From positions 1 through 64,000 of IMG/VR virus record IMGVR_UViG_3300025936_000020: 64,000 nt of DNA, one strand, 5' to 3'. The notes under the pieces are model-generated. The model was not told the DNA's origin. It saw only the letters and a list, made by a program, of their open reading frames with translations, and ran no database searches. The translations under genes and the position numbers were made by a program. Shown piece by piece: positions 3,355-37,464 of the stretch. Within the stretch, counting starts at the first letter, position 1. Every line of letters begins with the position of its first letter. This stretch comes from a virus (taxonomy: Duplodnaviria; Caudoviricetes).

Positions 3355-3573
3355 GTGAAGCTCCCATCCGGATATACGGCCAGACCCGACGGCACGTTCG
3401 CCAAGACGATCACCATTGAATGGGGCATCACGCGCAAGTGTCAGTCGACCGAAACCCTGGTTCGATCGGCGACCGGCAAACTGCTTTCCGTCGAGGGCCG
3501 AGCCAGGCGGAAGCGCACCGCTATGCCGAAGGAACGGCTCCCGTACAAGAAAAGGCCCGCCAAGACTTCCTGA
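3355..3573 (+). CDS. small basic hypothetical protein
   Basis: 72-aa ORF with GTG start directly after terL. Confidence 0.5.
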   Translation: MKLPSGYTARPDGTFAKTITIEWGITRKCQSTETLVRSATGKLLSVEGRARRKRTAMPKERLPYKKRPAKTS

Positions 3574-3602
3574 CGGGCTCTGTGGGGCTGAGGTGGTTGG
3601 GA

Positions 3603-4244: not shown

Positions 4245-4640
4245 TCATCGCCAAGGACCAATCTGCTGCGACTCAACTTTGCCGCAGATAATGCAGTGAC
4301 GCATTGGCTCGTAATGGATCACGAGGCACCCCGACACGCCGCAGCCGACCTCCCATGCGTGCCCTCGTAAGTCGCACAACAAACGGCTCGCGACAAGTGC
4401 AACGACGAGGTTTGACTTCGCTTCGTCGGTGAACGGCACCTTGAGACCGTTGATATTGGCGAACAGCGTTGAACCTTCAATGGCGATGTTGGTAATGATG
4501 GGGCGGTCGAAGTAGTTCGTGATGAAAAATGCTCCGTTCGTCGCATTGATCGTTAATCTCGTGGAGTCTGCACGCGGTATGAACAGCGTCATCGCCCATG
4601 CAAACAGAACCAAGCAGACGATGGCGATGCTCTTGCTCAC
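4245..4640 (-). CDS. exported or membrane-anchored protein with Cys/His-rich C-terminus
   Basis: Hydrophobic N-terminus; C-terminal CDLRGH...C...C..IH...HCIIC. Confidence 0.65.
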   Translation of the reverse strand: MSKSIAIVCLVLFAWAMTLFIPRADSTRLTINATNGAFFITNYFDRPIITNIAIEGSTLFANINGLKVPFTDEAKSNLVVALVASRLLCDLRGHAWEVGCGVSGCLVIHYEPMRHCIICGKVESQQIGPWR

Positions 4641-4972
4641 TTGGCGCTCGCCGCCGCAATCGCCGCGATGAGTTGCAGAATCTGCACGAGGTTCGTCGAG
4701 GATGAGCTTTCTGATAGGCCGGCGAGACTCATACCTTGCGTCTTGTCCGTCGTCGTGGCCCGCAGCTTGGTTAGGTCGCTTTTCGCGTCAAACAGCGTGG
4801 ATACGTGAATGTGTGTCTCGCGCTTCGTGCCGTCCAACTGCGTCTCGGTCTGCTGCGATGAGAAGCTGGCGCAACCCGTATGTATCACCACAGGCACGAT
4901 GCAGAACAGCGCCACCAGCGCGAACATGGCCAGCGGCGGGACTTTGGCGAACGGGTCGGGGTAGCGGTTCAT
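4637..4972 (-). CDS. putative lipoprotein (possible spanin-like component)
   Basis: Hydrophobic segment then HTGC lipobox-like Cys; lies in the lysis neighbourhood. Confidence 0.6.
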   Translation of the reverse strand: MNRYPDPFAKVPPLAMFALVALFCIVPVVIHTGCASFSSQQTETQLDGTKRETHIHVSTLFDAKSDLTKLRATTTDKTQGMSLAGLSESSSSTNLVQILQLIAAIAAASAK

Positions 4973-5007
4973 GCGGCAGGTTTACGCGCCTCGCGCGGCG
5001 CTGTCAA
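4973..5007 (-). promoter_or_regulatory. sigma70-like leaderless promoter
   Basis: TTGACA-17-TAAACC-6 nt-ATG(4972). Confidence 0.55.
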
Positions 5008-5184
5008 CGCCCAACGCGGGCTTCACCAAGGCCAACCAATCCTTGTAGCGCAACGGCGGTTCCATCTCCTACAGGCGCATGATCGGCATGGCGTTGACGC
5101 AGCACCGCGGGAACGCCGGGTCCATTGTCGGGCGTGCGGCTAGGTGCGGAAACTTGGCGATCCACCGCGTGACGCTGGGCGAGG

Positions 5185-5709
5185 TCATGGCTTATTTCGC
5201 AGCAGCTCAATGAGCGCCACCAGAATCGCCGTGAGCACGCCGATGGTCGCGATGACTTGCCCGAGACCCCACTGCACTGTCTGCCGTGTCTCCTGCTGCT
5301 GGTCGCGCCGTCCGGTGCCTGCCGCGCTGCCCTCCTGCAATCGTCCGATGTCCGCTTTCACTGTCTCCAGCTTGGCGTCGAAGCGCTTTTCATATTCCTC
5401 CAAGCGTTCGCGGTCAACGAACCGCGCGGCCTGCGCCTCCATCTTGCGCGTCAAATCGTTGTGCTGCGCGTTGTAGGCTTTCTGGCCTTCTTCGGTCTTG
5501 AGCACCGATTCCTTGTTCGCGGCAAACGCGGCGTTGGTCTGCTTCTCTACGGCGACCAATGCCGTCGCCGTCGCCTCCTTCATCTCAGCCAGCCGCGCGT
5601 CGTAATGCTTCTCCAGGTTGAGCAGCCATCGCTCGAAGTGCGCGTGCAGGCTATCGACGTTCCAGCGTGTTTTACAGTCGTCCGGTCGGATGCTGTGCCC
5701 TTTTTCCAT
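5185..5709 (-). CDS. coiled-coil protein with C-terminal transmembrane helix (holin/spanin-associated type)
   Basis: Long heptad-rich helix followed by WGLGQVIATIGVLTAILVALIELL. Confidence 0.7.
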   Translation of the reverse strand: MEKGHSIRPDDCKTRWNVDSLHAHFERWLLNLEKHYDARLAEMKEATATALVAVEKQTNAAFAANKESVLKTEEGQKAYNAQHNDLTRKMEAQAARFVDRERLEEYEKRFDAKLETVKADIGRLQEGSAAGTGRRDQQQETRQTVQWGLGQVIATIGVLTAILVALIELLRNKP

Positions 5710-5743
5710 GCGGAAATTTCGCCCATGCCGCCCTGTTTGTCAG
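5710..5743 (-). promoter_or_regulatory. sigma70-like leaderless promoter
   Basis: CTGACA-17-GAAATT-5 nt-ATG(5709). Confidence 0.45.
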
Positions 5744-5750
5744 CCGAAAA

Positions 5751-6671
5751 TTACGGTGCCGCGTATTCGGCAACGTTGCTGTAGGGCCCAGTGCCCAAGC
5801 TGTTGCGCTGCCTTACGCGGTAGGCGTAATTCCGCCTTCTGCGGATGCTGTCGCTCACATTCTGTATCCCCGGCGCGACCGTGGCCACGCGCTTGAAGCT
5901 GGTGTTTTCCTCGTTGCGCTCCACCTCGGTCGAAGCCGTCATCGTGCCCACCCATCGCAGGTCGAGCCGTGTTTGAGTCGCGGGCGTGATCCGCAGATCA
6001 GTTGGCGCAGGCGGCACGCTCGGCGCAGGCGCAAGACTGACAGTGAAATAGCTGTAGGGTGATGCCGTCCACACGCCCGCGCTGCTCTTGACGACCATAT
6101 ACGCCGTGTAGATGCCCGTCGCCACGCCCGTCGAGGCCGTCCATGTCCCGGAGATGGCCGCGCTGCTCTTGGCCGCAACCACCAGCGGCGGCGTCACGAC
6201 GACGACGTGGATATACGGCCCGTCGTCGCGTGTCGCACCGGGCGGCAACAGCGTCAGCGCGCCATCGACAGCGATGAAGTCGCTGTCACCCGTGTTCTGT
6301 ATCAGCGCCGTGATGTTGACGCTCTGCCCAATCGCCACGTTCGTCGTCGAGAGGCCCGGCGCGACCATCGTTATCACCGGACCGCTCGGTGGCACCGGCC
6401 CCGGCTGGTTCGTCACCGTGTTCGATGGACCGCTCTCGCCAACGGTATTCACCGCCGTCACGTAGAAGCGCGTCACCAGCGTGGCATTCACCGGCACCGA
6501 CGCGGTGTTCCCGGTGAGGTTCAGGATGGGCGCAAACGGTGCCGTGCCCACCGACGAGTAAACGGTGTAACTGGCCGCGCCTGCGCTTGTATTCCAGACG
6601 AGGTTGGTGTTTGCCGCGCTCGCAGCCAGCGCCCACAGCGCCAGCGCCAATGTAAGAAGTGTTTTTTTCAT
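5751..6671 (-). CDS. secreted fibronectin type III / Ig-like domain protein
   Basis: Signal peptide MKKTLLTLALALWALAASA. FN3-like segments LVWNTSAGAASYTVY...YVTAVNTVGESGPSN and PPAPTDL...LDLRW...YAYRVRQRNSLGTGPYSN flank an Ig-like domain. Confidence 0.8.
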   Translation of the reverse strand: MKKTLLTLALALWALAASAANTNLVWNTSAGAASYTVYSSVGTAPFAPILNLTGNTASVPVNATLVTRFYVTAVNTVGESGPSNTVTNQPGPVPPSGPVITMVAPGLSTTNVAIGQSVNITALIQNTGDSDFIAVDGALTLLPPGATRDDGPYIHVVVVTPPLVVAAKSSAAISGTWTASTGVATGIYTAYMVVKSSAGVWTASPYSYFTVSLAPAPSVPPAPTDLRITPATQTRLDLRWVGTMTASTEVERNEENTSFKRVATVAPGIQNVSDSIRRRRNYAYRVRQRNSLGTGPYSNVAEYAAP

Positions 6672-7031
6672 GCCGTTTGCTTTCGTGTGCCCGTTGCCGT
6701 TCGCCTCATGGCTGCACCAGCAACCAAGCCCATTGTTGCCGTTCGGGTCAAAGTAAGGCTGCACCGTCTTGCGCCCGTTGATGAACGCGGGCGGTGCTTG
6801 GTCGCGCTCACCGCCTCGCTCCAAGTTAAACTTGCTGCACTGCGACCGCCTGTTGGTGACGCCAAGTTGCACAAAGCGCCCGTTGCGAAGCGCCTTCTCC
6901 AGCGGCACAGCCGTGCAGCATGCCTCCGTGCCCGCCTCGGTGAAGAACCGCACCTTGTTGTTCGGCGCGATGATGGCGATGTAGAGCACGAGTTCGTCAT
7001 TCGGGTAGTAGAAGTAAACCGCGTGACGCAC
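6672..7031 (-). CDS. Cys-containing hypothetical ORF, in frame with and unstopped before the FN3 gene
   Basis: GTG 7031 follows the holin stop; 120 protein-like codons run into the signal peptide at 6671. Confidence 0.45.
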
Positions 7032-7034
7032 GCT

Positions 7035-7217
7035 TTACGGCTTCGACATTGAAGTGTTCGCAGCGTGGTGCCAATAGCTCCACCCAATGCCCACCGCCGC
7101 CGCCACCCCAGCGATGACGATTTCCAGCGTCGAATTGTCGGTGTAACCCTTGGCGACTAGCGCGCCGCCGATGACCTTGAGGACGCTGCGAATGGCTGAA
7201 TTGACTTGTTCGCTCAT
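7035..7217 (-). CDS. putative small two-TM holin
   Basis: MSEQVNSAIRSVLKVIGGALVAKG...IVIAGVAAAVGIGWSYW; 60 aa, two hydrophobic helices. Confidence 0.7.
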   Translation of the reverse strand: MSEQVNSAIRSVLKVIGGALVAKGYTDNSTLEIVIAGVAAAVGIGWSYWHHAANTSMSKP

Positions 7218-7252
7218 CCCGCAAGTGTCCGCCCCGCCTGCGCTGCCGTCAA
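7218..7252 (-). promoter_or_regulatory. sigma70-like leaderless promoter
   Basis: TTGACG-17-GACACT-6 nt-ATG(7217). Confidence 0.55.
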
Positions 7253-7261
7253 CCGCTGGTT

Positions 7262-7384
7262 TTAGCGGACCAACAGGACATGGCGTCGGCAACGCACGCA
7301 AAAGCGCATCCCGTCCGGTCGCTCCACAAAGCGATGGCCGATGAACCAGCAGAGCATCGAGCGCAGGTAATCGAGGAAGGTCAT
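7262..7384 (-). CDS. small Zn-binding protein (C-x3-GH...CxRC)
   Basis: Manual translation MTFLDYLRSMLCWFIGHRFVERPDGMRFCVRCRRHVLLVR; ATGA overlap with the upstream stop. Confidence 0.6.
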   Translation of the reverse strand: MTFLDYLRSMLCWFIGHRFVERPDGMRFCVRCRRHVLLVR

Positions 7385-8070
7385 TGCGTCCGCCATTCAA
7401 GCAACGTGAACGTTGGCACCGCGACACCCGGTTGCAGCGTGACGTTGACGCCGTGCCCGAAGCAACACCCGCCGCCGAACGTAATGCCCACCCACTTCGG
7501 ATTGTTCATCGTCTGCACCCAGTAAGGGTAGTAAATCGGGTCGGTCGCTGGCTGGCCGTCTGTCTCGCTCCAATTCTCCGGCGTAAGCGGAACGTGCAGT
7601 TCTACCGCTCCGCCCGTGTTAACTAGCGTGAACTTCACCGGGTTGCTCCACCAACGCAACTGCGGCGGAACACAAATGCCGAATAACTCCTTGCAATTGT
7701 TCGCGTCGCTGGTCTGAACGTAAACGTGGAAGTTCGCCGGTGGCGGGTTGGTGTTCCATGAATCGCTTGCGTGATTCCAGATTACGCTTGGGTCCGCGGT
7801 GATGGCAAACGTGACGACGATCTCCGAGCCTGTGAGCGCGATGTTTTTGACCGGCGACACGAAGTAGCCGTCCCACGTCGGTCCAGCGTTCGGGTCAGGC
7901 TGCGCCGAAACTTCAAAGTTGAACCCGATGCCGCCACCAGCGACGGCGTGGATGGGCAGACGCCCCACTGCCCGATTCCAGAGTTGCCACTTGTTTGCCG
8001 TGATCGGGACGCTCACCTGAGCTTTCGCCGCAACCGTGAAGAGCACGAGAAGCAAGATTAGGTTTTTCAT
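7381..8070 (-). CDS. secreted beta-rich protein, possibly carbohydrate-binding
   Basis: Signal peptide MKNLILLLVLFTVAAKA; Trp/Tyr-rich with paired Cys. Confidence 0.75.
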   Translation of the reverse strand: MKNLILLLVLFTVAAKAQVSVPITANKWQLWNRAVGRLPIHAVAGGGIGFNFEVSAQPDPNAGPTWDGYFVSPVKNIALTGSEIVVTFAITADPSVIWNHASDSWNTNPPPANFHVYVQTSDANNCKELFGICVPPQLRWWSNPVKFTLVNTGGAVELHVPLTPENWSETDGQPATDPIYYPYWVQTMNNPKWVGITFGGGCCFGHGVNVTLQPGVAVPTFTLLEWRTQ

Positions 8071-8109
8071 GCTGACAGGGTGTGCTCCGACTCCGTGGTC
8101 GTCAAATGC

Positions 8110-8523
8110 TCAAAACGGACCAGCCGTTACGATGAACAGGATGGCGTTGGTGCGCTGCGCTTGCGTGAAGCCGCCCCATAGGTCACCGATCTTGGGCGGG
8201 ATCGCGAGATTAGTCTGCCCCTGAGTCAGTGCAAACGCCGCTGCTGCGTCCAGCCCGCCGCGCCGGTTCCATTCCGCGCTCTTGTCGCCAAGCTCCTGCG
8301 ACACGTAAGCGTTGAACGTCAGCGCCGACAACCCTGCGTTGGTCCTCGTCCGCGAGTTGTCGTTCCATTGTGCGAGCAAGCCCGACACGTAAATCGCGGG
8401 CACGTTGATCGTGTTTGTGGCTTGCAGCGACCCGTCGTTGGTCGTGACACGGACGCTGACACTCTGCGCTTGAACGGTCGCAGCCGCAAGCAACAGAGCC
8501 GATAGAAGAAGGATTCGTTTCAT
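8110..8523 (-). CDS. secreted hypothetical protein
   Basis: Signal peptide MKRILLLSALLLAAATVQA. Confidence 0.75.
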   Translation of the reverse strand: MKRILLLSALLLAAATVQAQSVSVRVTTNDGSLQATNTINVPAIYVSGLLAQWNDNSRTRTNAGLSALTFNAYVSQELGDKSAEWNRRGGLDAAAAFALTQGQTNLAIPPKIGDLWGGFTQAQRTNAILFIVTAGPF

Positions 8524-8528
8524 AAGGT

Positions 8529-8666
8529 TTATGTTGCCATGTTTCCCAAGCCCAACCACTCAGCAAATTTCATCGCGGCGGCAACCACAATCGTAATCAT
8601 TGCCACAACGATCACTATGCCGATGGCTGCGTCTGCCCAATTCCAGTCAGGTTGCTCGTCGTTCAC
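8529..8666 (-). CDS. small single-TM protein
   Basis: GTG overlaps the upstream TGA; ...WADAAIGIVIVVAMITIVVAAAMKFAEWLG... Confidence 0.55.
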   Translation of the reverse strand: MNDEQPDWNWADAAIGIVIVVAMITIVVAAAMKFAEWLGLGNMAT

Positions 8667-9415
8667 GGGATCGAATACTTCGGCTTAAGGTAATTGAGGT
8701 ACATACCGTCCATCTCCGCATCGGTCAACGCCCGGTTGTAGAACATAATCTCCGCGAGGTCGCCAAGGAAGAACGCGGCTGAGTTCTGTGAGCCGAATTG
8801 CGCGATGTCGATGTTCAATCCCAGCGCACCTTGATTGTTCCCGAGCGAGCTGGTCGCCTCACGGAACTGGCACGTCGAGCCGGTGTAAGCGAACGTGCCC
8901 ATGAGCGGGTTTGTGCCCGTGGCCCCTGGCAGGTTGCTGGACGGAAACAGCACGCCGTCGAAGATAAACCGTTGCGCTGCCGACACGTCGATGCGGATAC
9001 CGCCAGCGCCCACTGCCGGTCGCGCAATGAGGTAGCGCGTCCCAGCCCCGCCGTTGTAAGCCCAGCACGCAATCACGCTCCAGCCGGTGTTGGTCCGCAG
9101 CGTGATCGTCGTCGAGAGCAGCATCGTGTCCGAACTGCCGTCGAACCGCGCCACGGGCTTGTTGCCGAAGATGGCCGTCTTATACGTTGGCCGTGCCGTG
9201 GTCGATGCCGCTGCCTCGTTGCGATACAGGCAATCAACCCACACGTCGATGGACTGTGCGTCGATGGCGGGAACCGACTCAGCTTTCCAGAGCGCCACGA
9301 GGCCTGGCACGTTCGCCGGATAACCGCAGGTGAACCGGCGTCGATTGGCCTGCGTCGCCCATTGACCGTGGACCACGAGGGGCAGGAGCAATAGAATAAG
9401 AAGTCGCGTTACCAT
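8663..9415 (-). CDS. secreted LamG/concanavalin A-like lectin domain protein
   Basis: Signal peptide MVTRLLILLLLPLVVHG; GLVALWKAE...ARFDGSSD...FLGDLAEIMFYNRALTDAE pattern. Confidence 0.8.
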   Translation of the reverse strand: MVTRLLILLLLPLVVHGQWATQANRRRFTCGYPANVPGLVALWKAESVPAIDAQSIDVWVDCLYRNEAAASTTARPTYKTAIFGNKPVARFDGSSDTMLLSTTITLRTNTGWSVIACWAYNGGAGTRYLIARPAVGAGGIRIDVSAAQRFIFDGVLFPSSNLPGATGTNPLMGTFAYTGSTCQFREATSSLGNNQGALGLNIDIAQFGSQNSAAFFLGDLAEIMFYNRALTDAEMDGMYLNYLKPKYSIP

Positions 9416-12009
9416 GCGCTGGGTGCCGTCGATGACTCGGTGTATTGAAGCCTGGCCTTGAGCAGCAAAACGGTATTCGTCCACGTATCACTGCCGTTGC
9501 TGCCTTGGCGCGAGATATCGAACCATAGGGAGTCGCCCACCGCAGGACTGCCGCCAACTGTGATAGCCGGTGTCGTGAACACTTGCATCACATTGCCTAC
9601 GGTATCGAGACCGTTCGTCACGAAAACCTGCGTTCCGAAGACCGCATTCGTCAGCGCCTCCAGTGGCGCGAGCGATCCGGCTTTGACGCCCCACACGAGG
9701 TTGGTGGTCGTCGCCACGTTGGTACCGCTGCTGGTGACGTAGAGCTTGAGCTTTACGGTGCCGACATTCCACACATCCGGCAGCGTGATGGCAAAACGTG
9801 TCGCCTGCGTTGCTGCATCGGCGAACACCCACGCATCCGAGAGAGTTTCGTTCACGCTGTTCGTGTACTGCGTCAGCGTCGCCGCCGTTGGAGCCGGAAA
9901 CATTGCGCCCGGCTCAATCGAAAAGTCGCGCAGGATGCCGGTGAACGTGCCAGTCGCCGTGAGATTGGTTCCGCTCATGGCCAGTCCAGTGCCGATGCCG
10001 ACGCCCGCCAGCGTGTTGCTCGACGTAAACCCGGCCAAGCTCGTCGCCGTGCCAGTGATGTTTGAGACCGCCACCGCGCCGTTGGCATCCACGCTGAACC
10101 AGTTCGTGTAAGGATTGACCGTTGATGCCGTCGTGCGAGCCTTCGCCGTGGCGATGTAGACCGTGCCGCCTGCGCCCGTGCCAGTGCCTTGGCCGCCTTC
10201 AAGCGTGAAGTTCGCGCCTGCCTTGTCTGTGCCGGAACCGTCCGCCGCCTTGAGCGCCTGGTTGACGGGCGTTGCAGCGTCCACGCCCATTTGAATCACA
10301 GCAGCAGCATCGCGCACGAGCTGTGTATCGAATCCTGCTCCTGCTGTAATGGCTGAGTTTGCGGTGAAACCAATGGAGCCGTCAGAGGTTAAAGCAATAA
10401 ACGTAGTGTCCATGACGCCGTTGGCCCTTATGCGTATCCGTTCAGTCCCGCTGAGAGTTATCCCTATTGCGTCGAGAGATGGGCGGAAAAATCCAGTACC
10501 AGACCCATCGTCATCGACGAGCCACCCAATGCCCGGCTTGGTCGCCGTCCCCGCCTGCACGAGGAACTGTCCGTTCGAGTTGATCGTGGAATAGTTCGTG
10601 CCCGCGCTCGACCTCCATTGCATCAAATCGTTGGTCTGCCCCGAAGCGCCCACGGCGATGAATGGCACGTTATCAATCGTGCTTGCGGTGTTGGTTAACG
10701 GCCCAGTCATCGCATCACCCGCGAGCCGGACGTGATTGTTCCACGTAGCGCCAGCGTAATACTCGTTTCGCGCAGTCGTCGTGTTGAACCGAGCCATGCC
10801 ATTGGTCGGTGCCGCTGGACGTTGCGCGGTCGTGCCCTGCGGCAGGTTGAATGCGCCTGTGCCGCCGACATACATGTTCGTGCCATCGTCGGTGAGCAAC
10901 GAGTTGCCAAGGTTCGTCGTGCTCGTAAACTTCGCTACGGTATTCGCTGTGCCGCTGGCGGTCGCTGTGCCCGCTGGAATAATCGCCGTCGCCAGAATGT
11001 TGCTGCCGCTAACGGCCAGCGTGACCGTCGCCGTGTTTGTAAAGTTCGGCGTCGTGACGTTGGTGCCGTTGACCGATACGGTTGTGCCACTCGCATTGGT
11101 CAGCACAGGAACCCCGTTCACGGTCGGCGTTGCGGCAAATCTCGCCGATGCGCCGGGGAAGAAGTAGTTGTAGGCGCTGTCGCCGAAGACGTAATCATTG
11201 CTGTTGGTCGCCTGCGCACCACTGCCGAGCATGAAGATGTGGGACTTGCCGCTCAGGCTAAGCGATTGACCAGCACTGGTGCCGAAGGCGTAGATGTCCG
11301 ACACGTTCGTCAGCGTTGATGTTTCCAGCGTTCCATCACCATAAGCGTAAACTTCCGACGAACCGCTCACCTTTGCATGGTCCAAGGCTGAACGGCCATA
11401 CCCGTAAATTTGCGAACTGTTCGTGATCTTACCGGCAAACAGAGGTCCGCGTCCGAATCCGTAAATGTCCTGCGAGTTCGTGATGACCACACTTGAAAGG
11501 GCGAAATGGCCTATCCCGAACAGGTCGGTGCCGGTCTGTATCACCGCCGAGTTGAATACCGAATGGCCTACGCCTATCAGATCGGAACTGTTCGTCACGG
11601 TCGTACTGTCGAATAGCGAGTCGCCAAGCCAAACGATCTGACTGGAGTCTCGAAACAGGCTGTTCCCGCCTCCGCTGATGCCCAAGCCGTAGAATCCAAA
11701 AAGGTTGCTGGCCCCCACATCCGCAAGCGATCCCATGACGAAAATCTGCGAGCTGTTCGTGAAAGCGGAGGTTTGCAGCGCCGTCTCGCCAATCGCCACG
11801 ACATCGGAGCTGCCTGAAAGCGTCGTCCCTGCCAGCGAACCGTTGCCCAAGCCAATGGCGCTGGATGTGTTCGTGATCGTTGAGCTTCCGAGGGTGAATG
11901 ATCCAGTCCATTTGGGAACCAGGTTATTGGTGCCGGCTCCGGACGGATTGGCAGCGCGCGCGAAGACGAGCGAACAGAGAAGGAGCGCAACGGCGATAAA
12001 AAGTTTCAT
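9409..12009 (-). CDS. tail-fibre/adhesin-like protein (866 aa) with N-terminal signal peptide
   Basis: Signal peptide MKLFIAVALLLCSLVFARA; ~22-aa repeats (TNSSQIFVMG, TNSSDLIGVG, TNSQDIYGFG...); fibre-type LPQGTTAQRP...RFNTT motif; G/T/S/A-rich. Confidence 0.8.
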   Translation of the reverse strand: MKLFIAVALLLCSLVFARAANPSGAGTNNLVPKWTGSFTLGSSTITNTSSAIGLGNGSLAGTTLSGSSDVVAIGETALQTSAFTNSSQIFVMGSLADVGASNLFGFYGLGISGGGNSLFRDSSQIVWLGDSLFDSTTVTNSSDLIGVGHSVFNSAVIQTGTDLFGIGHFALSSVVITNSQDIYGFGRGPLFAGKITNSSQIYGYGRSALDHAKVSGSSEVYAYGDGTLETSTLTNVSDIYAFGTSAGQSLSLSGKSHIFMLGSGAQATNSNDYVFGDSAYNYFFPGASARFAATPTVNGVPVLTNASGTTVSVNGTNVTTPNFTNTATVTLAVSGSNILATAIIPAGTATASGTANTVAKFTSTTNLGNSLLTDDGTNMYVGGTGAFNLPQGTTAQRPAAPTNGMARFNTTTARNEYYAGATWNNHVRLAGDAMTGPLTNTASTIDNVPFIAVGASGQTNDLMQWRSSAGTNYSTINSNGQFLVQAGTATKPGIGWLVDDDGSGTGFFRPSLDAIGITLSGTERIRIRANGVMDTTFIALTSDGSIGFTANSAITAGAGFDTQLVRDAAAVIQMGVDAATPVNQALKAADGSGTDKAGANFTLEGGQGTGTGAGGTVYIATAKARTTASTVNPYTNWFSVDANGAVAVSNITGTATSLAGFTSSNTLAGVGIGTGLAMSGTNLTATGTFTGILRDFSIEPGAMFPAPTAATLTQYTNSVNETLSDAWVFADAATQATRFAITLPDVWNVGTVKLKLYVTSSGTNVATTTNLVWGVKAGSLAPLEALTNAVFGTQVFVTNGLDTVGNVMQVFTTPAITVGGSPAVGDSLWFDISRQGSNGSDTWTNTVLLLKARLQYTESSTAPSAW

Positions 12010-12014
12010 AATTT

Positions 12015-12245
12015 TCAGACCCAAGCCGCCGAGCCGGGATCCCACTGGGACAATGGCCCGCCGCCCGTAGGAAAGCTTAGAGCAGGCAGGCTTGGATCAT
12101 CCGGGACCGGATTGTTCAGGAACACCTGCTGAGTTCCTCCGGAGCCGCTGCCGCCTCCGGAGCCGGAACCGGCATCCGGATCGGTTTGGGCCGGGGGACC
12201 CTCCAGATAACAGAACGGTTGGGCTGTGCAAATCACTTCCTGCAT
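12015..12245 (-). CDS. small Gly/Pro-rich hypothetical protein
   Basis: 76-aa ORF overlapping the upstream gene's 3' end. Confidence 0.55.
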   Translation of the reverse strand: MQEVICTAQPFCYLEGPPAQTDPDAGSGSGGGSGSGGTQQVFLNNPVPDDPSLPALSFPTGGGPLSQWDPGSAAWV

Positions 12246-12736
12246 GGTTCCTCCTCTGCGTTCACGGATTTCTCCACGGTGCCGCCGTGGACGTTGATCT
12301 GAATGGGACTGATCTGCGCTCCCGGCAGAAACGGTTTTCCCTGCGGCATGTTCGGGTGGGCGCTCCGCGTCTCGGCTACCTTGTTCAGTTCGAGTTGCAG
12401 GGCGACGTTCTCGTCGATGGCCTTTATGAAGCGCAGTTGAAGCTCCAGGTATCCCTGCCGGACTTCGTCGCTGATGCCGTCCCGGTTAGCCTGGGCGGCG
12501 CACGCAATGGCGGCTTCATAAATCATCTGTGAGGACCCGAGCAGGCGGCCATTTCCGTAACGGAGCAAGCCGACCTGGTCCAAAAACTGCCCGATGGTGG
12601 CGACGTTGTGGAGGCCTCGGGACGAGATGTTGAGAAGATTCAGCTCGCGCGCGGCCCGGTCCAACCTTCCGTCTGAAATCCGTTTCACCTTTCCGCTGGG
12701 TTCTCGGACTTCGATCTCTGTGGTAGCCTCGGGCAT
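12233..12736 (-). CDS. hypothetical protein, candidate terminase small subunit
   Basis: Helical core and C-terminal beta-like PIQINVH segment; size fits TerS. Inference only. Confidence 0.45.
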   Translation of the reverse strand: MPEATTEIEVREPSGKVKRISDGRLDRAARELNLLNISSRGLHNVATIGQFLDQVGLLRYGNGRLLGSSQMIYEAAIACAAQANRDGISDEVRQGYLELQLRFIKAIDENVALQLELNKVAETRSAHPNMPQGKPFLPGAQISPIQINVHGGTVEKSVNAEEEPCRK

Positions 12737-13087
12737 ATGATATTCGGACTTCACCCTCCGCGATTCGCCCAGTGGAGGCAAGTTTTATTGCTGGAGCGAA
12801 AATTGCTGTGGAGCGCCGCGCCGCACATCCTCTGGACGTTGATTACCGGCGTTGTTCATTTCCGTGGGCGCAGGGAGCGTTGGCGCCGGCGGATGCGGAC
12901 CTGTTACCGGTGCCCGATCTTCAACCCGAAACTTCGTCAGTGCCGTCCGGAGCCGCCTCCTGGAGCTGATCCGGAACCGTTTCGGAAGGTTGGCTGTGGA
13001 TGCTACACGCCGGCAATTTCGTTTTTTTATCCTCCTGGAAAACCCTGTTGGGGGCGCGCCCGTTCCCCGGGGGTTGGCTGGGTTTGA
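12737..13087 (+). CDS. Cys-rich Zn-binding phage protein
   Basis: RMRTCYRCPIF...QC...GCGCY...CW pattern. Confidence 0.65.
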   Translation: MIFGLHPPRFAQWRQVLLLERKLLWSAAPHILWTLITGVVHFRGRRERWRRRMRTCYRCPIFNPKLRQCRPEPPPGADPEPFRKVGCGCYTPAISFFYPPGKPCWGRARSPGVGWV

Positions 13088-14198
13088 ACGCGATCATCGC
13101 GTTGTGCCGTATCTGGCGTAGCGGCGTCTGGTAGTACGGTTTTCTCCGGTCCACGTCCGGCGTCCATTCCTTGAACGCGTCGTCCGGCGTGAGCGCGACC
13201 GCGTCGCAGATGCCGCGGCCGGGACGGACCAGCCCCTTCAGCACGGCGGGAACGAGCATCTTCGAACCGGTGACGATACCGTCAACGACGGTGGCCGGCG
13301 GATGGAAGACCCGGACCGCGTACCATTTCATGATCTCCAGAACAGCCGGCAGATGGCTGGCCATCTCGTTAAGAATCCCGGAGGTGTAATTGCTCGCGCA
13401 TAATTTCTGTTTCCTGGCCAGCTCGTGTTCTTCCATCCGCTTCTCCAGCTCCGGCGATGGGATCGTCTCGAGCGTCCAATGAACGAATTGCTTGCGCCGG
13501 TCGAACGCCAGAAGTTTCGGACTGGCCAGCGCGCCGTAGAATCCTGACAGCGTGAAGGCCTCGTGCCGTTCCTCCGGGGCCTTTCCAAACATCGACATCA
13601 GACTGGAGAATCGGACGGCGATCGCTTCTTTCCAGTTTTGACGGTACGGCATCGGGATGATTTTGATGAAGCCCAGGTCCAGGATCTTTCGCTCGGCAAG
13701 CCTTCGCACGGCCGCCGCCCTGACCTGAAGCCAGAACACCTTCAGCGCGTCCCAGCTGATTTCCGGGACCGTGTAGTGCAGATCCTTCAGGAACGCGAGT
13801 TCGATGCTGGAAAATCCCGGCTCCGGCGGAGGGTCAATCTGGTTGATAGTTGAGGGTTGATGGTTGATGACGCCGGGCCAGACGATGTAGTACTCGGGCG
13901 TGATCCCGGGCGCTTTAACGGCGAACCGTCTCAGGTCGGAATCGCGGAACCACCAGCCGCGCTCGTCGGGGCTGTAGTTCCACGCGTCCAGGATCGGCGT
14001 GAGAACTTTGTGCTGCGCCGGTGCGATCGAAAGTTCAGACATTGCCCGGCGCACGAACCAGATTACCGCGCCGTCGGTTTCGCTCTTAAACGGCGCGCAT
14101 TTGATCGGGAGCGTGAAGGCGAAATCGTCCGGGAGCCGGCCGCTGACGGTCCAGAGTTCGAAATCGCCGCAGGGCTTAACGCTGATTGTATTCGACAT
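12921..14198 (-). CDS. hypothetical protein (425 aa)
   Basis: Long protein-like ORF; no family recognised; 3' end overlaps the antisense gene by 167 nt. Confidence 0.7.
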   Translation of the reverse strand: MSNTISVKPCGDFELWTVSGRLPDDFAFTLPIKCAPFKSETDGAVIWFVRRAMSELSIAPAQHKVLTPILDAWNYSPDERGWWFRDSDLRRFAVKAPGITPEYYIVWPGVINHQPSTINQIDPPPEPGFSSIELAFLKDLHYTVPEISWDALKVFWLQVRAAAVRRLAERKILDLGFIKIIPMPYRQNWKEAIAVRFSSLMSMFGKAPEERHEAFTLSGFYGALASPKLLAFDRRKQFVHWTLETIPSPELEKRMEEHELARKQKLCASNYTSGILNEMASHLPAVLEIMKWYAVRVFHPPATVVDGIVTGSKMLVPAVLKGLVRPGRGICDAVALTPDDAFKEWTPDVDRRKPYYQTPLRQIRHNAMIAFKPSQPPGNGRAPNRVFQEDKKTKLPACSIHSQPSETVPDQLQEAAPDGTDEVSG

Positions 14199-14229
14199 CT
14201 CGGAGGTGAAGATACACGATCGCGCGAAA

Positions 14230-15114
14230 ATGAGCCGAGTACTTATTTTGGGAGGAAGCGGATTCGTCGGAAGCGCGTTTGCGCGCGAGCTGGCTGCGCG
14301 AAGCGTGGACTTCAGTTCCTTGTCAAGGAACCAGTGCGACTACACAAACTTCGCCGCGATCTACAGCCTGATGAAGAAAGTCCGGCCGGAGCTGGTCGTC
14401 AACTGCTCCGGGGTGACTGGAACTCCGAACGTCGACTGGTGCGAGTTGCACCGCAAAGAAACCATCGCCGGTAATATCATCGCGGCGGCGGCAATCTCGG
14501 ACGCCTGCTACAACCTCGGGATCATTCTCGGGCACATTTCGACCGGCTGCATCTACAACGGCGAACGGCCGCTGGGCGCGCCGTGGACGGAGGAGGACCC
14601 GCCCAATTTCTGTTTCGGCGAGGAACCGTGCAGCTTTTATTCCGGCACCAAGGCGTTGGCCGAATGGAAGATCGCCGGAAACCCGCTGGCCTACATCTGG
14701 CGGTTGCGGATGCCGTTCTGCGAAGAGGCCGACCCGAAAAATCTGATCACAAAGCTGGTGACTTACCCCGCAATCTTCGATTCGCCGAAAAATTCCCTTT
14801 CCCACCTCGGCGAATGCGTCCGGGCCTGCCTGGACACCTGGGAGCTGGGCGTGAAGCGCGGGATTTACAACGTGGTCAACCCGGGGGCTCTGACAAACCG
14901 GGAGATCGTCGAGCTCATCTGCGAAATTCTGAAACCGAACCGCAGCTACGACGCTTGGGCTGATCAGATCCCGTTTTACAAGGAGCACGCGATGGCGCCG
15001 CGATCAAACTGCGTGCTTTCGTCCAAAAAACTCAGCGCGGCCGGGATAGAGCTGCGCCCGGTGTCGGAGGCGATGGCGGAAACGCTGAAGAACTACAAGC
15101 CGACCCCGCTATGA
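14230..15114 (+). CDS. NDP-4-keto-6-deoxyhexose 3,5-epimerase/4-reductase-like SDR (RmlD / NRS-ER type)
   Basis: GGSGFVG Rossmann motif, GVTGTPNVDWCE, STGCIY, YSGTK catalytic motif, WRLRMP...KNLITK. Confidence 0.85.
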   Translation: MSRVLILGGSGFVGSAFARELAARSVDFSSLSRNQCDYTNFAAIYSLMKKVRPELVVNCSGVTGTPNVDWCELHRKETIAGNIIAAAAISDACYNLGIILGHISTGCIYNGERPLGAPWTEEDPPNFCFGEEPCSFYSGTKALAEWKIAGNPLAYIWRLRMPFCEEADPKNLITKLVTYPAIFDSPKNSLSHLGECVRACLDTWELGVKRGIYNVVNPGALTNREIVELICEILKPNRSYDAWADQIPFYKEHAMAPRSNCVLSSKKLSAAGIELRPVSEAMAETLKNYKPTPL

Positions 15115-35236: not shown

Positions 35237-36229
35237 TTGAGCAAGAGTATTCTCATTTCCGGCGGCTGCGGTTTCATCTCTTCCCACCTCGTTGACCATC
35301 TTCTTGAGAACACGGACTGGACGATCACCGTACTGGACGGGCTAACCTACGCGGGCGATCCAGCCAGGCTATACGAGTCGGCAAAGTTCGACCGGGCCAG
35401 GGTCCGCATCCTGTGGCACGACCTTAACGCGCCCATCATGGACACGCTCATCCGGCGCATCGGTGGCGTGGATGCCGTGGTCAACATGGCCAGCAATTCA
35501 CACATCGACAAGAGCATCGCCGACCCGGTGCCGTTCGTGAAAAACAATGTCAACATCGCGCTGCACATGCTCGAGTACGCTCGCGCCGTGAGCCCGGACG
35601 TCTTCGTTCAAGTGGGAACTGATGAGGAGTACGGATCCATCGAACCGGACGGCGTGCCATATAAGGAGTGGGCGCCGATCAATCCGAGCAATCCATACAG
35701 CGCGTCGAAAGCCGCGATGGTCGCCGTCGCCATCGCCTACTGGCGCACCTACGGCGTCCCCGCCATCATCGTCGAACCGATGAATAACTTCGGGGAAAGG
35801 CAGGACCGAGAAAAATTTATTCCCAAGTGCGTCCGCACAGTCTTGGCCGGTGAAGAAATGGTTCTGCACGGCACGCCTGATAACATCGGCAGCCGCTATT
35901 ACCTGCACGCACGCAACACAGCCGACGCCATCCTGTTCCTGCTGCGCCGGCCTGTGTCGGCTTATCCGAAGACCGACCGCCCCGACCGCTACAACATCGT
36001 TGGCGACCGGCGCGTTGATAATCTTGAAATGGCGCAGCGCATCGCCAAGATTCTGGATCGCCCGCTGCGCTACCGATTTGATCATAGCCCACGCAGCCGG
36101 CCGGGCCACGATCTGCATTACGGATTGGACGGCGCAAAGCTCGCCGCGCTCGGCTGGCAGCCGCCCGTGGACTTCGATACCAGCTTGGAAAGGACCGTGA
36201 AATGGATGCAAAGCAATCAACATTGGTGA
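35237..36229 (+). CDS. rmlB: NDP-glucose 4,6-dehydratase (RmlB-like)
   Basis: GGCGFISS, DGLTYAG, MASNSHID, GTDEEYG, NPYSASKA, NNFGERQ..EKFIP, RPGHDLHY. Confidence 0.9.
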   Translation: MSKSILISGGCGFISSHLVDHLLENTDWTITVLDGLTYAGDPARLYESAKFDRARVRILWHDLNAPIMDTLIRRIGGVDAVVNMASNSHIDKSIADPVPFVKNNVNIALHMLEYARAVSPDVFVQVGTDEEYGSIEPDGVPYKEWAPINPSNPYSASKAAMVAVAIAYWRTYGVPAIIVEPMNNFGERQDREKFIPKCVRTVLAGEEMVLHGTPDNIGSRYYLHARNTADAILFLLRRPVSAYPKTDRPDRYNIVGDRRVDNLEMAQRIAKILDRPLRYRFDHSPRSRPGHDLHYGLDGAKLAALGWQPPVDFDTSLERTVKWMQSNQHW

Positions 36230-37464
36230 CCGCGATCACCGCCTGCCGCGCCTGCGGGGAGGAGAACCTTGAGTCCTTGATGAACTTCGGCCATCTGCCG
36301 CTGGCCAACCGGTATCTGGTCAGCCCGGATGAGAAGGATTTCTACGCCCCGCTTGAACTCGTTCTCTGCAAGAATTGCTGCTGCGTGCAGCTCCGGCACA
36401 CCGTCGATCCAAAGATCTTATTTGGCGAATATCTCTACGCCTCATCCACGTCCGGATCGCTGGCTGAACACTTCAAGGATTACGCCCAGGAAACCACGGA
36501 TAAGCTCGGGTTCAAGCCGGGCGATGAACCGTTCATTATCGGCATCGGTGGCAACGACGGCTGCCTGGAGCGGGAGTATCAGCGGCTCGGGTTCAAAGTT
36601 CTCGACGTTCTGAACGTGGAACCTGCCAGCAATCTAGCGGCGCTGGCGCGTGCTAACGGTGTGCCAACCCTCAACGAATGGTTCAACGAAAACACCGCTC
36701 AGCGCATCGTCGCGCAGCATGGCCGCCAAGCCGATCTCGTCACCTGCAACCATTGCTTCGCCCACATGCCGGATGTCAACGGCGTGGTGCGCGGGGTAAA
36801 GGCTCTGCTCAAACCGGGCGGCACATTCATCTTCGAAGAGGCGTACTGGCCAGACACGGTGGCCGGTTCCCACTTCGACCAGATCTACCACGAGCACGTA
36901 TTCTATTGGACGGTCGAAGCGCTGGATGAATTGTTCGCCAAGCATGACATGAAGATCGAGGACATGCAGTTCAGACCGGAGCAGGGAGGATCGATCAGGG
37001 TCTTTGTGCGGAATGAGTCGTACAAGCAGAAGCTGGAGCTGCGCAATGTCCTGATGAAGGAGTTCAGGAACGGGCTGTACGATCCCAGCACCTACATGAA
37101 ATGGTGGGAGAAGATTATGGCATGGAGGACAAAGTGCCGTGATTTCCTGCGGCCGCTGGACTCCATCTCCTGCTACGGTGCGCCGGCCAAGTTCACGATG
37201 ATCTCCGAACAGCTTGGATTCTCGCACAGATGGATCGCCTATGCCGTGGAAGACTCGCCGATCAAGGTGGGAAGGTTCACGCCAGGCTCGCACATCCAGA
37301 TCGTTGCCAGGTCGCACTTCATCGATCATCCGACCGAGCACTGTATCATCACCGCGGCGAACTACGCCGATCTCATCGCCAAGTCCAACCCGCAGTACAA
37401 GGGGAAGTGGATCATCCTGAATCCGGAACCGAAGTTTTATGAGCGGTCTTCAGAAACACACTGA
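36202..37464 (+). CDS. NDP-hexose C-methyltransferase (3-C-methyltransferase family)
   Basis: CRACG...CKNC Zn site, PLANRY, YLYASSTS, IGGNDG, HCFAH, FDQIYHEH, YGAPAK. Confidence 0.88.
   Translation: MDAKQSTLVTAITACRACGEENLESLMNFGHLPLANRYLVSPDEKDFYAPLELVLCKNCCCVQLRHTVDPKILFGEYLYASSTSGSLAEHFKDYAQETTDKLGFKPGDEPFIIGIGGNDGCLEREYQRLGFKVLDVLNVEPASNLAALARANGVPTLNEWFNENTAQRIVAQHGRQADLVTCNHCFAHMPDVNGVVRGVKALLKPGGTFIFEEAYWPDTVAGSHFDQIYHEHVFYWTVEALDELFAKHDMKIEDMQFRPEQGGSIRVFVRNESYKQKLELRNVLMKEFRNGLYDPSTYMKWWEKIMAWRTKCRDFLRPLDSISCYGAPAKFTMISEQLGFSHRWIAYAVEDSPIKVGRFTPGSHIQIVARSHFIDHPTEHCIITAANYADLIAKSNPQYKGKWIILNPEPKFYERSSETH

Follow-up and report, generated by a model that had tools for sequence, protein, structure and literature searches.

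Positions 4245 to 12009 of the window (the whole stretch of 64,000 nucleotides analyzed here, bases 1-64000 of the 74,141-bp IMG/VR record IMGVR_UViG_3300025936_000020, which is rated 95% complete) come from an uncultured soil phage and hold a block of tailed-phage genes, most of which begin with predicted export signals. The block lies within a minus-strand run that extends from 14198 down to 3603. Read along that strand, it encodes an 866-aa fiber-like protein (p866), three smaller proteins with signals (p250, p137, and p229), a holin, a protein with FN3 domains, and three small proteins with predicted membrane-associated segments. Elsewhere, the genome encodes a large terminase (phrog_2), a GIY-YIG/NUMOD3 homing-type endonuclease, an integrase, a replication module, and a nucleotide-sugar pathway. 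The core virion genes occupy the minus strand from ~74 kb down to 52 kb and include a 3,017-aa protein and a Collar-domain tail fiber without a signal (PF07484, E = 9e-21). The signal-bearing block and the core virion block are located on opposite sides of the terminase gene.

A preliminary description of this sequence had assigned Sec-type or lipoprotein signal peptides to seven genes of the block. We recovered all seven, at minus-strand starts 12009, 9415, 8523, 8070, 6671, 4972, and 4640, and each N-terminus combines a positively charged n-region with an uncharged hydrophobic core of 10-18 residues. Signals were called with our own strict heuristic for n-, h-, and c-regions (net positive n-region; h-region of >=10 residues with a mean Kyte-Doolittle value of >=2.2; small residues at -3/-1), which was run on the 96 open reading frames (ORFs) of the 74-kb genome. 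Eight ORFs are flagged: seven are the named genes, which fall within ten consecutive genes, and the eighth is an internal start in an ORF with low G+C content at third codon positions (GC3). Shuffled proteins from the genome pass the heuristic at a false-positive rate of 0.5%, and signals cluster likewise in four related contigs.

Although all seven genes are flagged, their signals differ in type and the block is not uniform. We assigned signals to the Sec/signal peptidase I (SPI) class where the n-region is positive, the hydrophobic h-region spans 7-15 or more residues, and positions -3/-1 hold small residues. Cleavable signals of this type occur on only five proteins (866, 250, 137, 229, and 306 aa), small residues at -3/-1 being present in five of the seven signals, and the start of the 306-aa FN3 protein is itself doubtful. 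The 111-aa protein has a lipoprotein-like signal with an atypical lipobox, IHTGC, with a His that a lipobox does not allow at -3, while the 131-aa protein seems to keep its N-terminus as an anchor without cleavage. The earlier assignment stands for five SPI-type signals, that of the FN3 protein depending on its start, and has to be amended for one atypical lipobox and one signal anchor. Judged by sequence, these N-termini are real Sec and lipoprotein export signals that would direct export and cleavage.

The first and largest gene of the block (9409..12009, minus strand) encodes p866, which we delimited by its ORF, signal, AlphaFold2 model, and homologs. Its signal spans aa 1-21 (cleavage predicted at about ARA|ANP) and is followed by a beta-helix (aa 41-287), a region of fiber motifs (aa 378-471), a conserved Gly-rich region (aa 560-690), and a swappable tip (aa 689-866). 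The tail-fiber-type motif GTTAQRP, previously noted in this protein, is indeed present at aa 392-398 (10816..10836, minus strand), inside a stretch of ~90 residues (aa 374-471) that matches annotated fiber and fiber-like proteins from T4-like cyanophages and from a Sinorhizobium phage by tblastn (E = 1e-3 to 7e-7). PHROG matches are to two families of unknown function, phrog_25721 and phrog_2803 (E ~1e-7); a Pfam scan found no fiber family, and a sequence search of solved structures, mosaic adhesive trimer (MAT) tips included, returned no match. The tip module (178 aa; 9412..9945, minus strand) is exchanged together with the downstream gene, and it resembles the C-terminus of EBPR siphovirus 2 gp74 (34% identity, E = 6e-7), a tail-module protein without a signal that is encoded beside a tail gene. 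As a separate observation, a signal-less 76-aa protein rich in Gly, Ser, and Pro (12015-12245, minus strand) abuts the fiber gene, and its C-terminal ~30 residues recur upstream of signal-bearing fibers in L004, L006, and L009, which represent three backbones.

The beta-helix domain of p866 (11149..11889, minus strand) is supported by its repeat register, its AlphaFold2 model, and its fold matches. About thirteen 19-residue repeats with the consensus ..TNSSxIYxxGxxAL.. follow one another in perfect register, and the AlphaFold2 monomer is confident to about aa 280 (predicted local distance difference test [pLDDT] of 76-95 at aa 41-270) and of low confidence past aa 290. The best structural match by VIA-align is 3p4g_A, a Ca2+-dependent beta-helical antifreeze protein (MpAFP region IV; Z = 18.3, root mean square deviation 3.3, 251 residues aligned), followed by the autotransporter passengers TibA (4q1q, Z = 17.7) and Ag43 (7koh, Z = 17.6). 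The two-partner-secretion adhesins EtpA and HMW1 and phage tailspikes (Z = 13-17) also match. As modeled, the fold is generic, being common to secreted adhesins and phage spikes, and the likeness to the two-partner-secretion domains of HMW1 and EtpA amounts to a generic beta-helix. TibA, Ag43, and MpAFP region IV are the closest in predicted structure and share with p866 a single-chain beta-helix behind a signal; passengers of the AIDA-I/TibA type, like MpAFP, are reportedly built from 19-residue repeats as well. However, the repeat consensus of p866 differs from theirs, the remainder of the protein is phage-fiber-like, and we found neither an autotransporter barrel nor an RTX-type secretion signal in it (Pfam and NCBIfam).

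We also looked for dedicated routes to the cell surface. For the barrel, the C-terminal fold of p866 is not confidently modeled, and the last 180 residues resemble a phage tip. A search for NPN[LGI] found no NPNL/NPNGI motif in p866, and among the matches listed in the Pfam scans of the genome there is no POTRA/ShlB-type (TpsB) family. None of the seven proteins matches the C-terminal sorting domain of the type IX secretion system in NCBIfam or Pfam.

The three genes that follow p866 also encode proteins with SPI-type signals. The start of p250 (8663..9415, minus strand; cleavage predicted at VHG|Q) overlaps the p866 stop by 7 nucleotides. Its last 35 residues carry a LamG/ConA-like motif that matches Pfam Laminin_G_3 below threshold (E = 9.7e-4, 19.7 bits against a cutoff of 27.6), and its matches to solved structures by sequence are at chance level. 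The 137-aa p137 (8110..8523, minus strand; VQA|Q) has no assigned fold and no match in Pfam, PHROG, NCBIfam, PDB sequences, or the ESM Atlas, and we detected no relatives outside this phage group; in relatives without p229, its gene is directly upstream of the holin gene. The 229-aa p229 (7381..8070, minus strand; AKA|Q) is predicted by AlphaFold2 to form a jelly roll (pLDDT 78.7, predicted template modeling score 0.79) resembling carbohydrate-binding modules (CBMs). Its VIA-align matches lie in the range Z = 10-12 and comprise a laminin-IV-like domain, CBM15, CBM11, and CBM27 (9i5a, Z = 12.0; the CBM of 1wky, Z = 10.7; CBM15 and CBM11, Z = 10.1), and BFVD matches include models of tail-fiber proteins. 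On its model, p229 is a beta-sandwich of the CBM or laminin-IV type with predicted sugar binding. Neither p250 nor p229 has a tblastn match among 50,697 cultured or deposited phage records.

Conservation of the signal across homologs is the strongest argument that the observation is real. In the related phages that we surveyed, every p866 and p229 homolog inspected retains it: 17 of 17 database homologs and 6 of 6 viral-contig homologs of p866, behind whose signals the sequence is mosaic, and all 6 p229 homologs read, which are 26-70% identical. Nothing but export accounts for the retention of the signal in front of such mosaic sequence. These N-termini could in principle serve as transient membrane tethers or cytoplasmic assembly handles rather than for export, which would avoid the topological problem of uniting exported parts with tails built in the cytoplasm. 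We consider this very unlikely, since the n/h/c architecture, the small -3/-1 residues, and a Gln at +1 are maintained across highly diverged homologs, which is sensible only if signal peptidase acts on them.

The signal does not extend to the whole fiber family. A profile of the family matches 5,077 proteins at E <= 1e-3, and a signal is present in 56 of the 140 best representatives at 50% identity. Giant members (1,000-4,000 aa), in which a ~50-residue unit is repeated many times, are without one. Sequence comparison places the signal-bearing fibers as a sizeable subfamily inside a larger family of ordinary-looking fibers. Six of the giants (P0033-P0036, P0056, and P0115; 2,500-4,150 aa) contain 20-50 copies of the ~50-residue unit, which corresponds to fiber profile positions 457-510; none is flagged by the signal heuristic, and the N-terminus of P0056 is nevertheless hydrophobic.

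The block also occurs in phages with unrelated backbones. G002 (59.7 kb, rated complete) and G001, whose backbone is ~99% identical to that of G002, are both unrelated in backbone to the phage described here (G000), and the identity of the block between G000 and the otherwise unrelated G002 is 78-99%. G001 and G002 share with the window the fiber (78-83% identity), p137 (93-96%), and the FN3 gene (90-97%); G002 further carries a 131-aa protein that is 99% identical and a gene of the 111-aa type with a near-identical N-terminus. The fiber tip and the next exported gene are almost the only points of difference between G001 and G002. G001 has the window's tip and p250 (97% identical), while the G002 fiber diverges after aa 688 and ends in a short tip that is followed by a different exported protein of 287 aa, p250 being absent. 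The fiber tip and the next exported gene co-vary and move as a pair, the pattern of a receptor-binding tip and its putative partner or chaperone. In G002/G001, G004, and L009, the signal-bearing fiber occupies the classical fiber slot, directly after the virion genes and ahead of the lysis genes; L009 has two signal-bearing fibers and three further exported proteins. Adsorption and lysis functions that are specific to a host would be expected to be shared by unrelated phages in this way, and by these comparisons the block is a mobile, host-specific module that appears to be swapped among phages of one host.

Genes of the block overlap or abut. Scans for promoters and terminators, for which only E. 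coli-type consensus sequences were used, found no sigma-70-like promoter on the minus strand between 3400 and 14400; a strong terminator-like hairpin (10 pairs, 7 of them G-C, with a T-run; 3555..3578, minus strand) ends the minus-strand unit. The block looks like one late transcription unit. An architecture of morons, in which single genes carry their own signals for transcription, was rejected on the same scans, which revealed no internal promoters or terminators. This bears on the idea that the block is a lysogenic-conversion island, whose prophage-encoded adhesins and lectins would benefit the lysogen as do Lom and Bor of phage lambda. The phage does have an integrase, the exported morons of lambda adjoin its tail-fiber and lysis genes, and the beta-helix of p866 is adhesin-like. 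However, no minus-strand promoter-like sites or terminators frame single genes, the overlapping genes form one unit with a holin in its middle, and no relatives of the fiber alignment or p229 were found in 185,579 species-representative bacterial genomes, so that we regard lysogenic conversion as improbable.

The character of the block changes at the holin. The 60-aa holin (7035..7217, minus strand) belongs to the Pam3 gp28 family (Pfam PF23987, E = 2.2e-12; 47.2 bits against a curated cutoff of 27), and a 60-aa gene of L009 is 62% identical to it. The next gene (5751..7031, minus strand) encodes a protein of FN3, Ig-like, and FN3 segments, the Ig-like middle being assigned by eye. The fn3 profile matches the window protein at E = 0.014 and the L009 homolog at 1.1e-5, a PDB FN3 domain matches at E = 5e-4, the 306-aa part ends in an FN3 domain, and a sequence search of solved structures returns FN3 only. 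Two readings of the gene are possible, one of 306 aa that opens with a cleavable signal at ATG 6671 and one of 426 aa that begins at GTG 7031.

Several observations bear on this choice. The 120 in-frame codons that precede the start at 6671 (6672-7031, minus strand) include several Cys codons and are conserved and coding: their GC3 is 0.80, and in comparison with L005, 30 codons differ synonymously and 12 non-synonymously. GTG 7031 is located 3 nucleotides past the holin stop (stop, AGC, GTG), in the frame of both the holin and the FN3 gene. In G000, G002, and G004, the extension is fused to the FN3 gene; L009 has it in a different frame, and L003 lacks it, its FN3 gene beginning at the signal. 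The window's gene may thus encode 426 aa, with what was taken for a signal being an internal signal-anchor. The extension has no family match, and its PDB sequence matches are at chance level only; its tight coupling to the holin suggests a role in the regulation of lysis. In L003 (IMGVR_UViG_3300005617_000468), at 13760-14712, the holin reading frame appears interrupted, and an ORF with a J-domain-like motif and a helix-turn-helix-like tail, possibly a mobile insertion, takes the place of the 120-codon extension.

Three small genes complete the block. A 174-aa coiled-coil protein (5185..5709, minus strand) has a C-terminal membrane anchor and no N-terminal signal by sequence; L008 has a homolog, and L009 encodes proteins of 113 and 70 aa with C-terminal transmembrane segments in the same position. 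The 111-aa protein (4637..4972, minus strand), a probable lipoprotein by the signal heuristic and its L009 homolog, has the lipobox IHTGC in both the window and G002, while the L009 homolog (66% identical) has the canonical lipobox LLASGC and likewise ends in a hydrophobic helix. Its C-terminal stretch LVQILQLIAAIAAASA is hydrophobic but short, and the gene is near the holin gene; these features suggest a candidate unimolecular spanin of the T1 gp11 type, although Pfam, PHROG, and NCBIfam gave no family match. The 131-aa protein (4245..4640, minus strand), which overlaps the previous gene by 4 nucleotides, has an N-terminal membrane anchor by the signal heuristic and a C-terminal part rich in Cys and His. 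An NCBIfam scan of ten proteins of the block yielded nothing usable.

Together with the holin, the genes from 7031 to 4245 look like ordinary lysis-cassette membrane proteins. Their signals are unremarkable because export signals are ordinary in such proteins. The earlier premise of a single fiber and lectin set comprising all seven genes is too broad, since the last three and probably the FN3 gene go with the holin. No recognizable endolysin is present among the Pfam matches listed across the 74-kb genome; the muralytic enzyme would be either novel or encoded by one of the unassigned genes near the block (425, 182, 131, and 137 aa). A bolder version of this view would make the entire block an enlarged lysis and release system, in which the sugar-binding proteins are directed at peptidoglycan or the outer layers, the missing wall-degrading enzyme being among them. 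The embedded holin, the lipoprotein with a C-terminal hydrophobic helix and its anchored neighbor after the holin, and the lack of a Pfam-recognizable endolysin are in line with it, and Sec-exported endolysins exist, for example, in Oenococcus phage fOg44. On the other hand, Pfam, PHROG, and NCBIfam reveal no catalytic family or motif in the exported proteins, p229 has the fold of a binding module, and neither tip swapping nor fiber motifs are features of lysis proteins. We consider such a system unlikely.

The preliminary description further proposed that the fibers are glycosylated in the periplasm, for which we found no support. The p866 sequence contains 17 N-x-S/T sequons against 13.8 +/- 3.1 expected from composition, and the other proteins contain 0-6. 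No oligosaccharyltransferase or O-antigen-ligase family is among the matches listed in the Pfam scans of the genome, and the sugar genes of the phage (a dehydratase, a C-methyltransferase, an RmlD-like reductase, and glycosyltransferase-like genes) are of cytoplasmic nucleotide-sugar types. With neither sequon enrichment nor an oligosaccharyltransferase family, we rejected periplasmic glycosylation. Exported lectin-like proteins and phage sugar pathways co-occur in the phage-like contig L020 (logan SRR21686421_27588) as in the window: at 5964-14898, L020 encodes a signal-less collagen-like fiber of 1,074 aa and then two exported proteins, one of them p229-like, and further on are a GT2 gene, a gene of the UDP-glucose dehydrogenase family, and the three-domain C-methyltransferase that the window also encodes at 36202-37464.

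Hints about the host come from the signals themselves. Predicted cleavage exposes Gln in three of the five SPI-type proteins (p250, p137, and p229), and a Gln after the signal peptidase site is the Q-rule of Bacteroidota (PMC5837995). Upstream of starts, Shine-Dalgarno cores occur in 10 of 49 cases against 7.7 +/- 2.4, which is no enrichment. Together, these features hint at a high-GC Bacteroidota host, while the protein atlas hints at an Acidobacteriota host instead.

As for the destination of the exported proteins, known tailed-phage assembly is wholly cytoplasmic. We tentatively favor, with considerable reserve, the reading that p866, p250, p137, and p229 are the phage's outer host-recognition gear, exported and then joined to particles. 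These proteins would be made late in infection and moved across the inner membrane by the host Sec system, signal peptidase I would trim them such that three of the five trimmed proteins then begin with Gln, and they would fold in the periplasm. The exported proteins would meet the cytoplasm-built tails only once the holin opens the inner membrane, and released particles would carry them. Export, cleavage, and above all attachment to particles are steps that we infer, whereas the signals and their conservation, the folds, the exchange of modules, and the co-variation of the tip were read directly from sequences and models. The fiber slot, tip swapping, and a tip shared with the signal-less tail protein gp74 argue for this route.

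The only experimental pointer for attachment to particles comes from two cultured Cellulophaga phages, and our leaning rests on it. In phi10:1 (gp091-094, NC_021802) and phi18:3 (gp085-087, NC_021794), GenBank annotates tail-end proteins from tandem mass spectrometry proteomics of particles, and we found classical signals at the N-termini of all seven. In phi10:1, their genes lie past the annotated tail genes on the downstream side, and among their products is the only one that the record names a tail fiber. The arrangement resembles that of the window: fiber, lyase, and unknown proteins end the tail/virion block just before membrane proteins and an endolysin. However, the Cellulophaga proteins have no sequence similarity to those of the window, the hosts are marine Bacteroidota, and no holin lies inside their clusters. 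A literature search found no discussion of the signals on these tail-end proteins.

Several points weigh against a place on the virion. We know of no mechanism by which a tailed phage adds periplasmic parts, and the exported phage proteins known to us (T4 Spackle and RI, P1 Sim, T5 Llp, Cor, Rz/Rz1, Bor, and Lom) are all host directed. Mature p866 enters its beta-helix ~20 residues past the cleavage site, which leaves no obvious virion-docking domain, and this N-terminal domain is predicted to be a single-chain beta-helix like those of secreted bacterial adhesins. The core virion module already encodes the signal-less Collar-domain fiber. The Cellulophaga proteins are not homologous to those of the window, and particle proteomics can include co-purifying envelope-bound proteins.

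The same points lend themselves to a second possibility, which we rank next: the exported fiber and lectins may stay off particles and act on the envelope of the infected cell, where binding or masking of surface or periplasmic glycans (the receptor or its precursors) would stop superinfection or the sticking of progeny to debris. In this role, they would parallel T5 Llp or Cor but be directed at glycans. Export is strongly supported by the clustering and conservation of signals, the block is interleaved with lysis genes, and the beta-helix resembles those of TibA, Ag43, EtpA, and HMW1. The genes llp and cor adjoin the receptor-binding gene and track it, and p250 co-varies with the tip likewise; L020 pairs its signal-less collagen-like fiber with exported p229-like proteins. 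Llp, Cor, Spackle, and Sim are likewise signal-bearing phage proteins that act in the envelope, yet they are small single-domain proteins or lipoproteins, unlike a fiber-sized mosaic with several lectin-like companions. Such a mosaic would be a costly receptor mask, the Cellulophaga annotations point the other way, and with no outer-membrane export device or sorting signal found (autotransporter barrel, TpsB, NPNL/NPNGI, or type IX domain) the proteins would be periplasmic. Carriage on the virion and action on the host envelope, in that order, take up most of our confidence; the remainder, smaller than either, goes to an enlarged lysis system, lysogenic conversion, and N-termini that do not direct export, in descending order, and to further readings.

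The nearest described system is cellular rather than viral. The MAT fibers of Bdellovibrio bacteriovorus are owned by the cell, located at its surface, and equipped with a signal peptide and mosaic tips (PMC10769870). Like p866, they are fiber-like proteins of ~1,000 aa with a signal and exchangeable tips, including beta-sandwich or lectin folds, that act outside the cytoplasm (PMC10769870). They share a conserved domain, beta-rich and ~130 aa long, right after the signal (PMC10769870), which p866 does not have; the relatives of p866 carry at least four different post-signal modules, and its gene is phage-borne, unlike those of MAT fibers. A full-text literature search found no paper addressing signal peptides on tailed-phage fibers. 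The window contributes a cassette that passes between unrelated backbones, a tip that co-varies with its exported neighbor, a holin embedded in the block, and a measure of how large the signal-bearing subfamily is.

A wider generalization, which we regard as doubtful, is that a widespread group of tailed phages finishes its particles outside the cytoplasm, with exported and trimmed fibers and lectins docking after the holin breach, the holin gating the last assembly step in addition to lysis, and the cassette being mobile. On that account, the kit would move between unrelated phages as one cassette because it works with components of the host envelope, and the 19-residue-repeat beta-helix possibly needs periplasmic conditions such as Ca2+ to fold. 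Should fibers mature in the periplasm, this would be an undescribed compartmental step in phage assembly and a second role for the holin, and the rules for predicting receptor-binding proteins and engineering host range would have to allow signal peptides. Were their role instead to coat or mask the envelope of the host, the proteins would form a large new class of exclusion or release factors directed at glycans. In both cases, the window provides a compact test case, with a swappable cassette in two unrelated backbones and a fiber tip with a recognizable partner.

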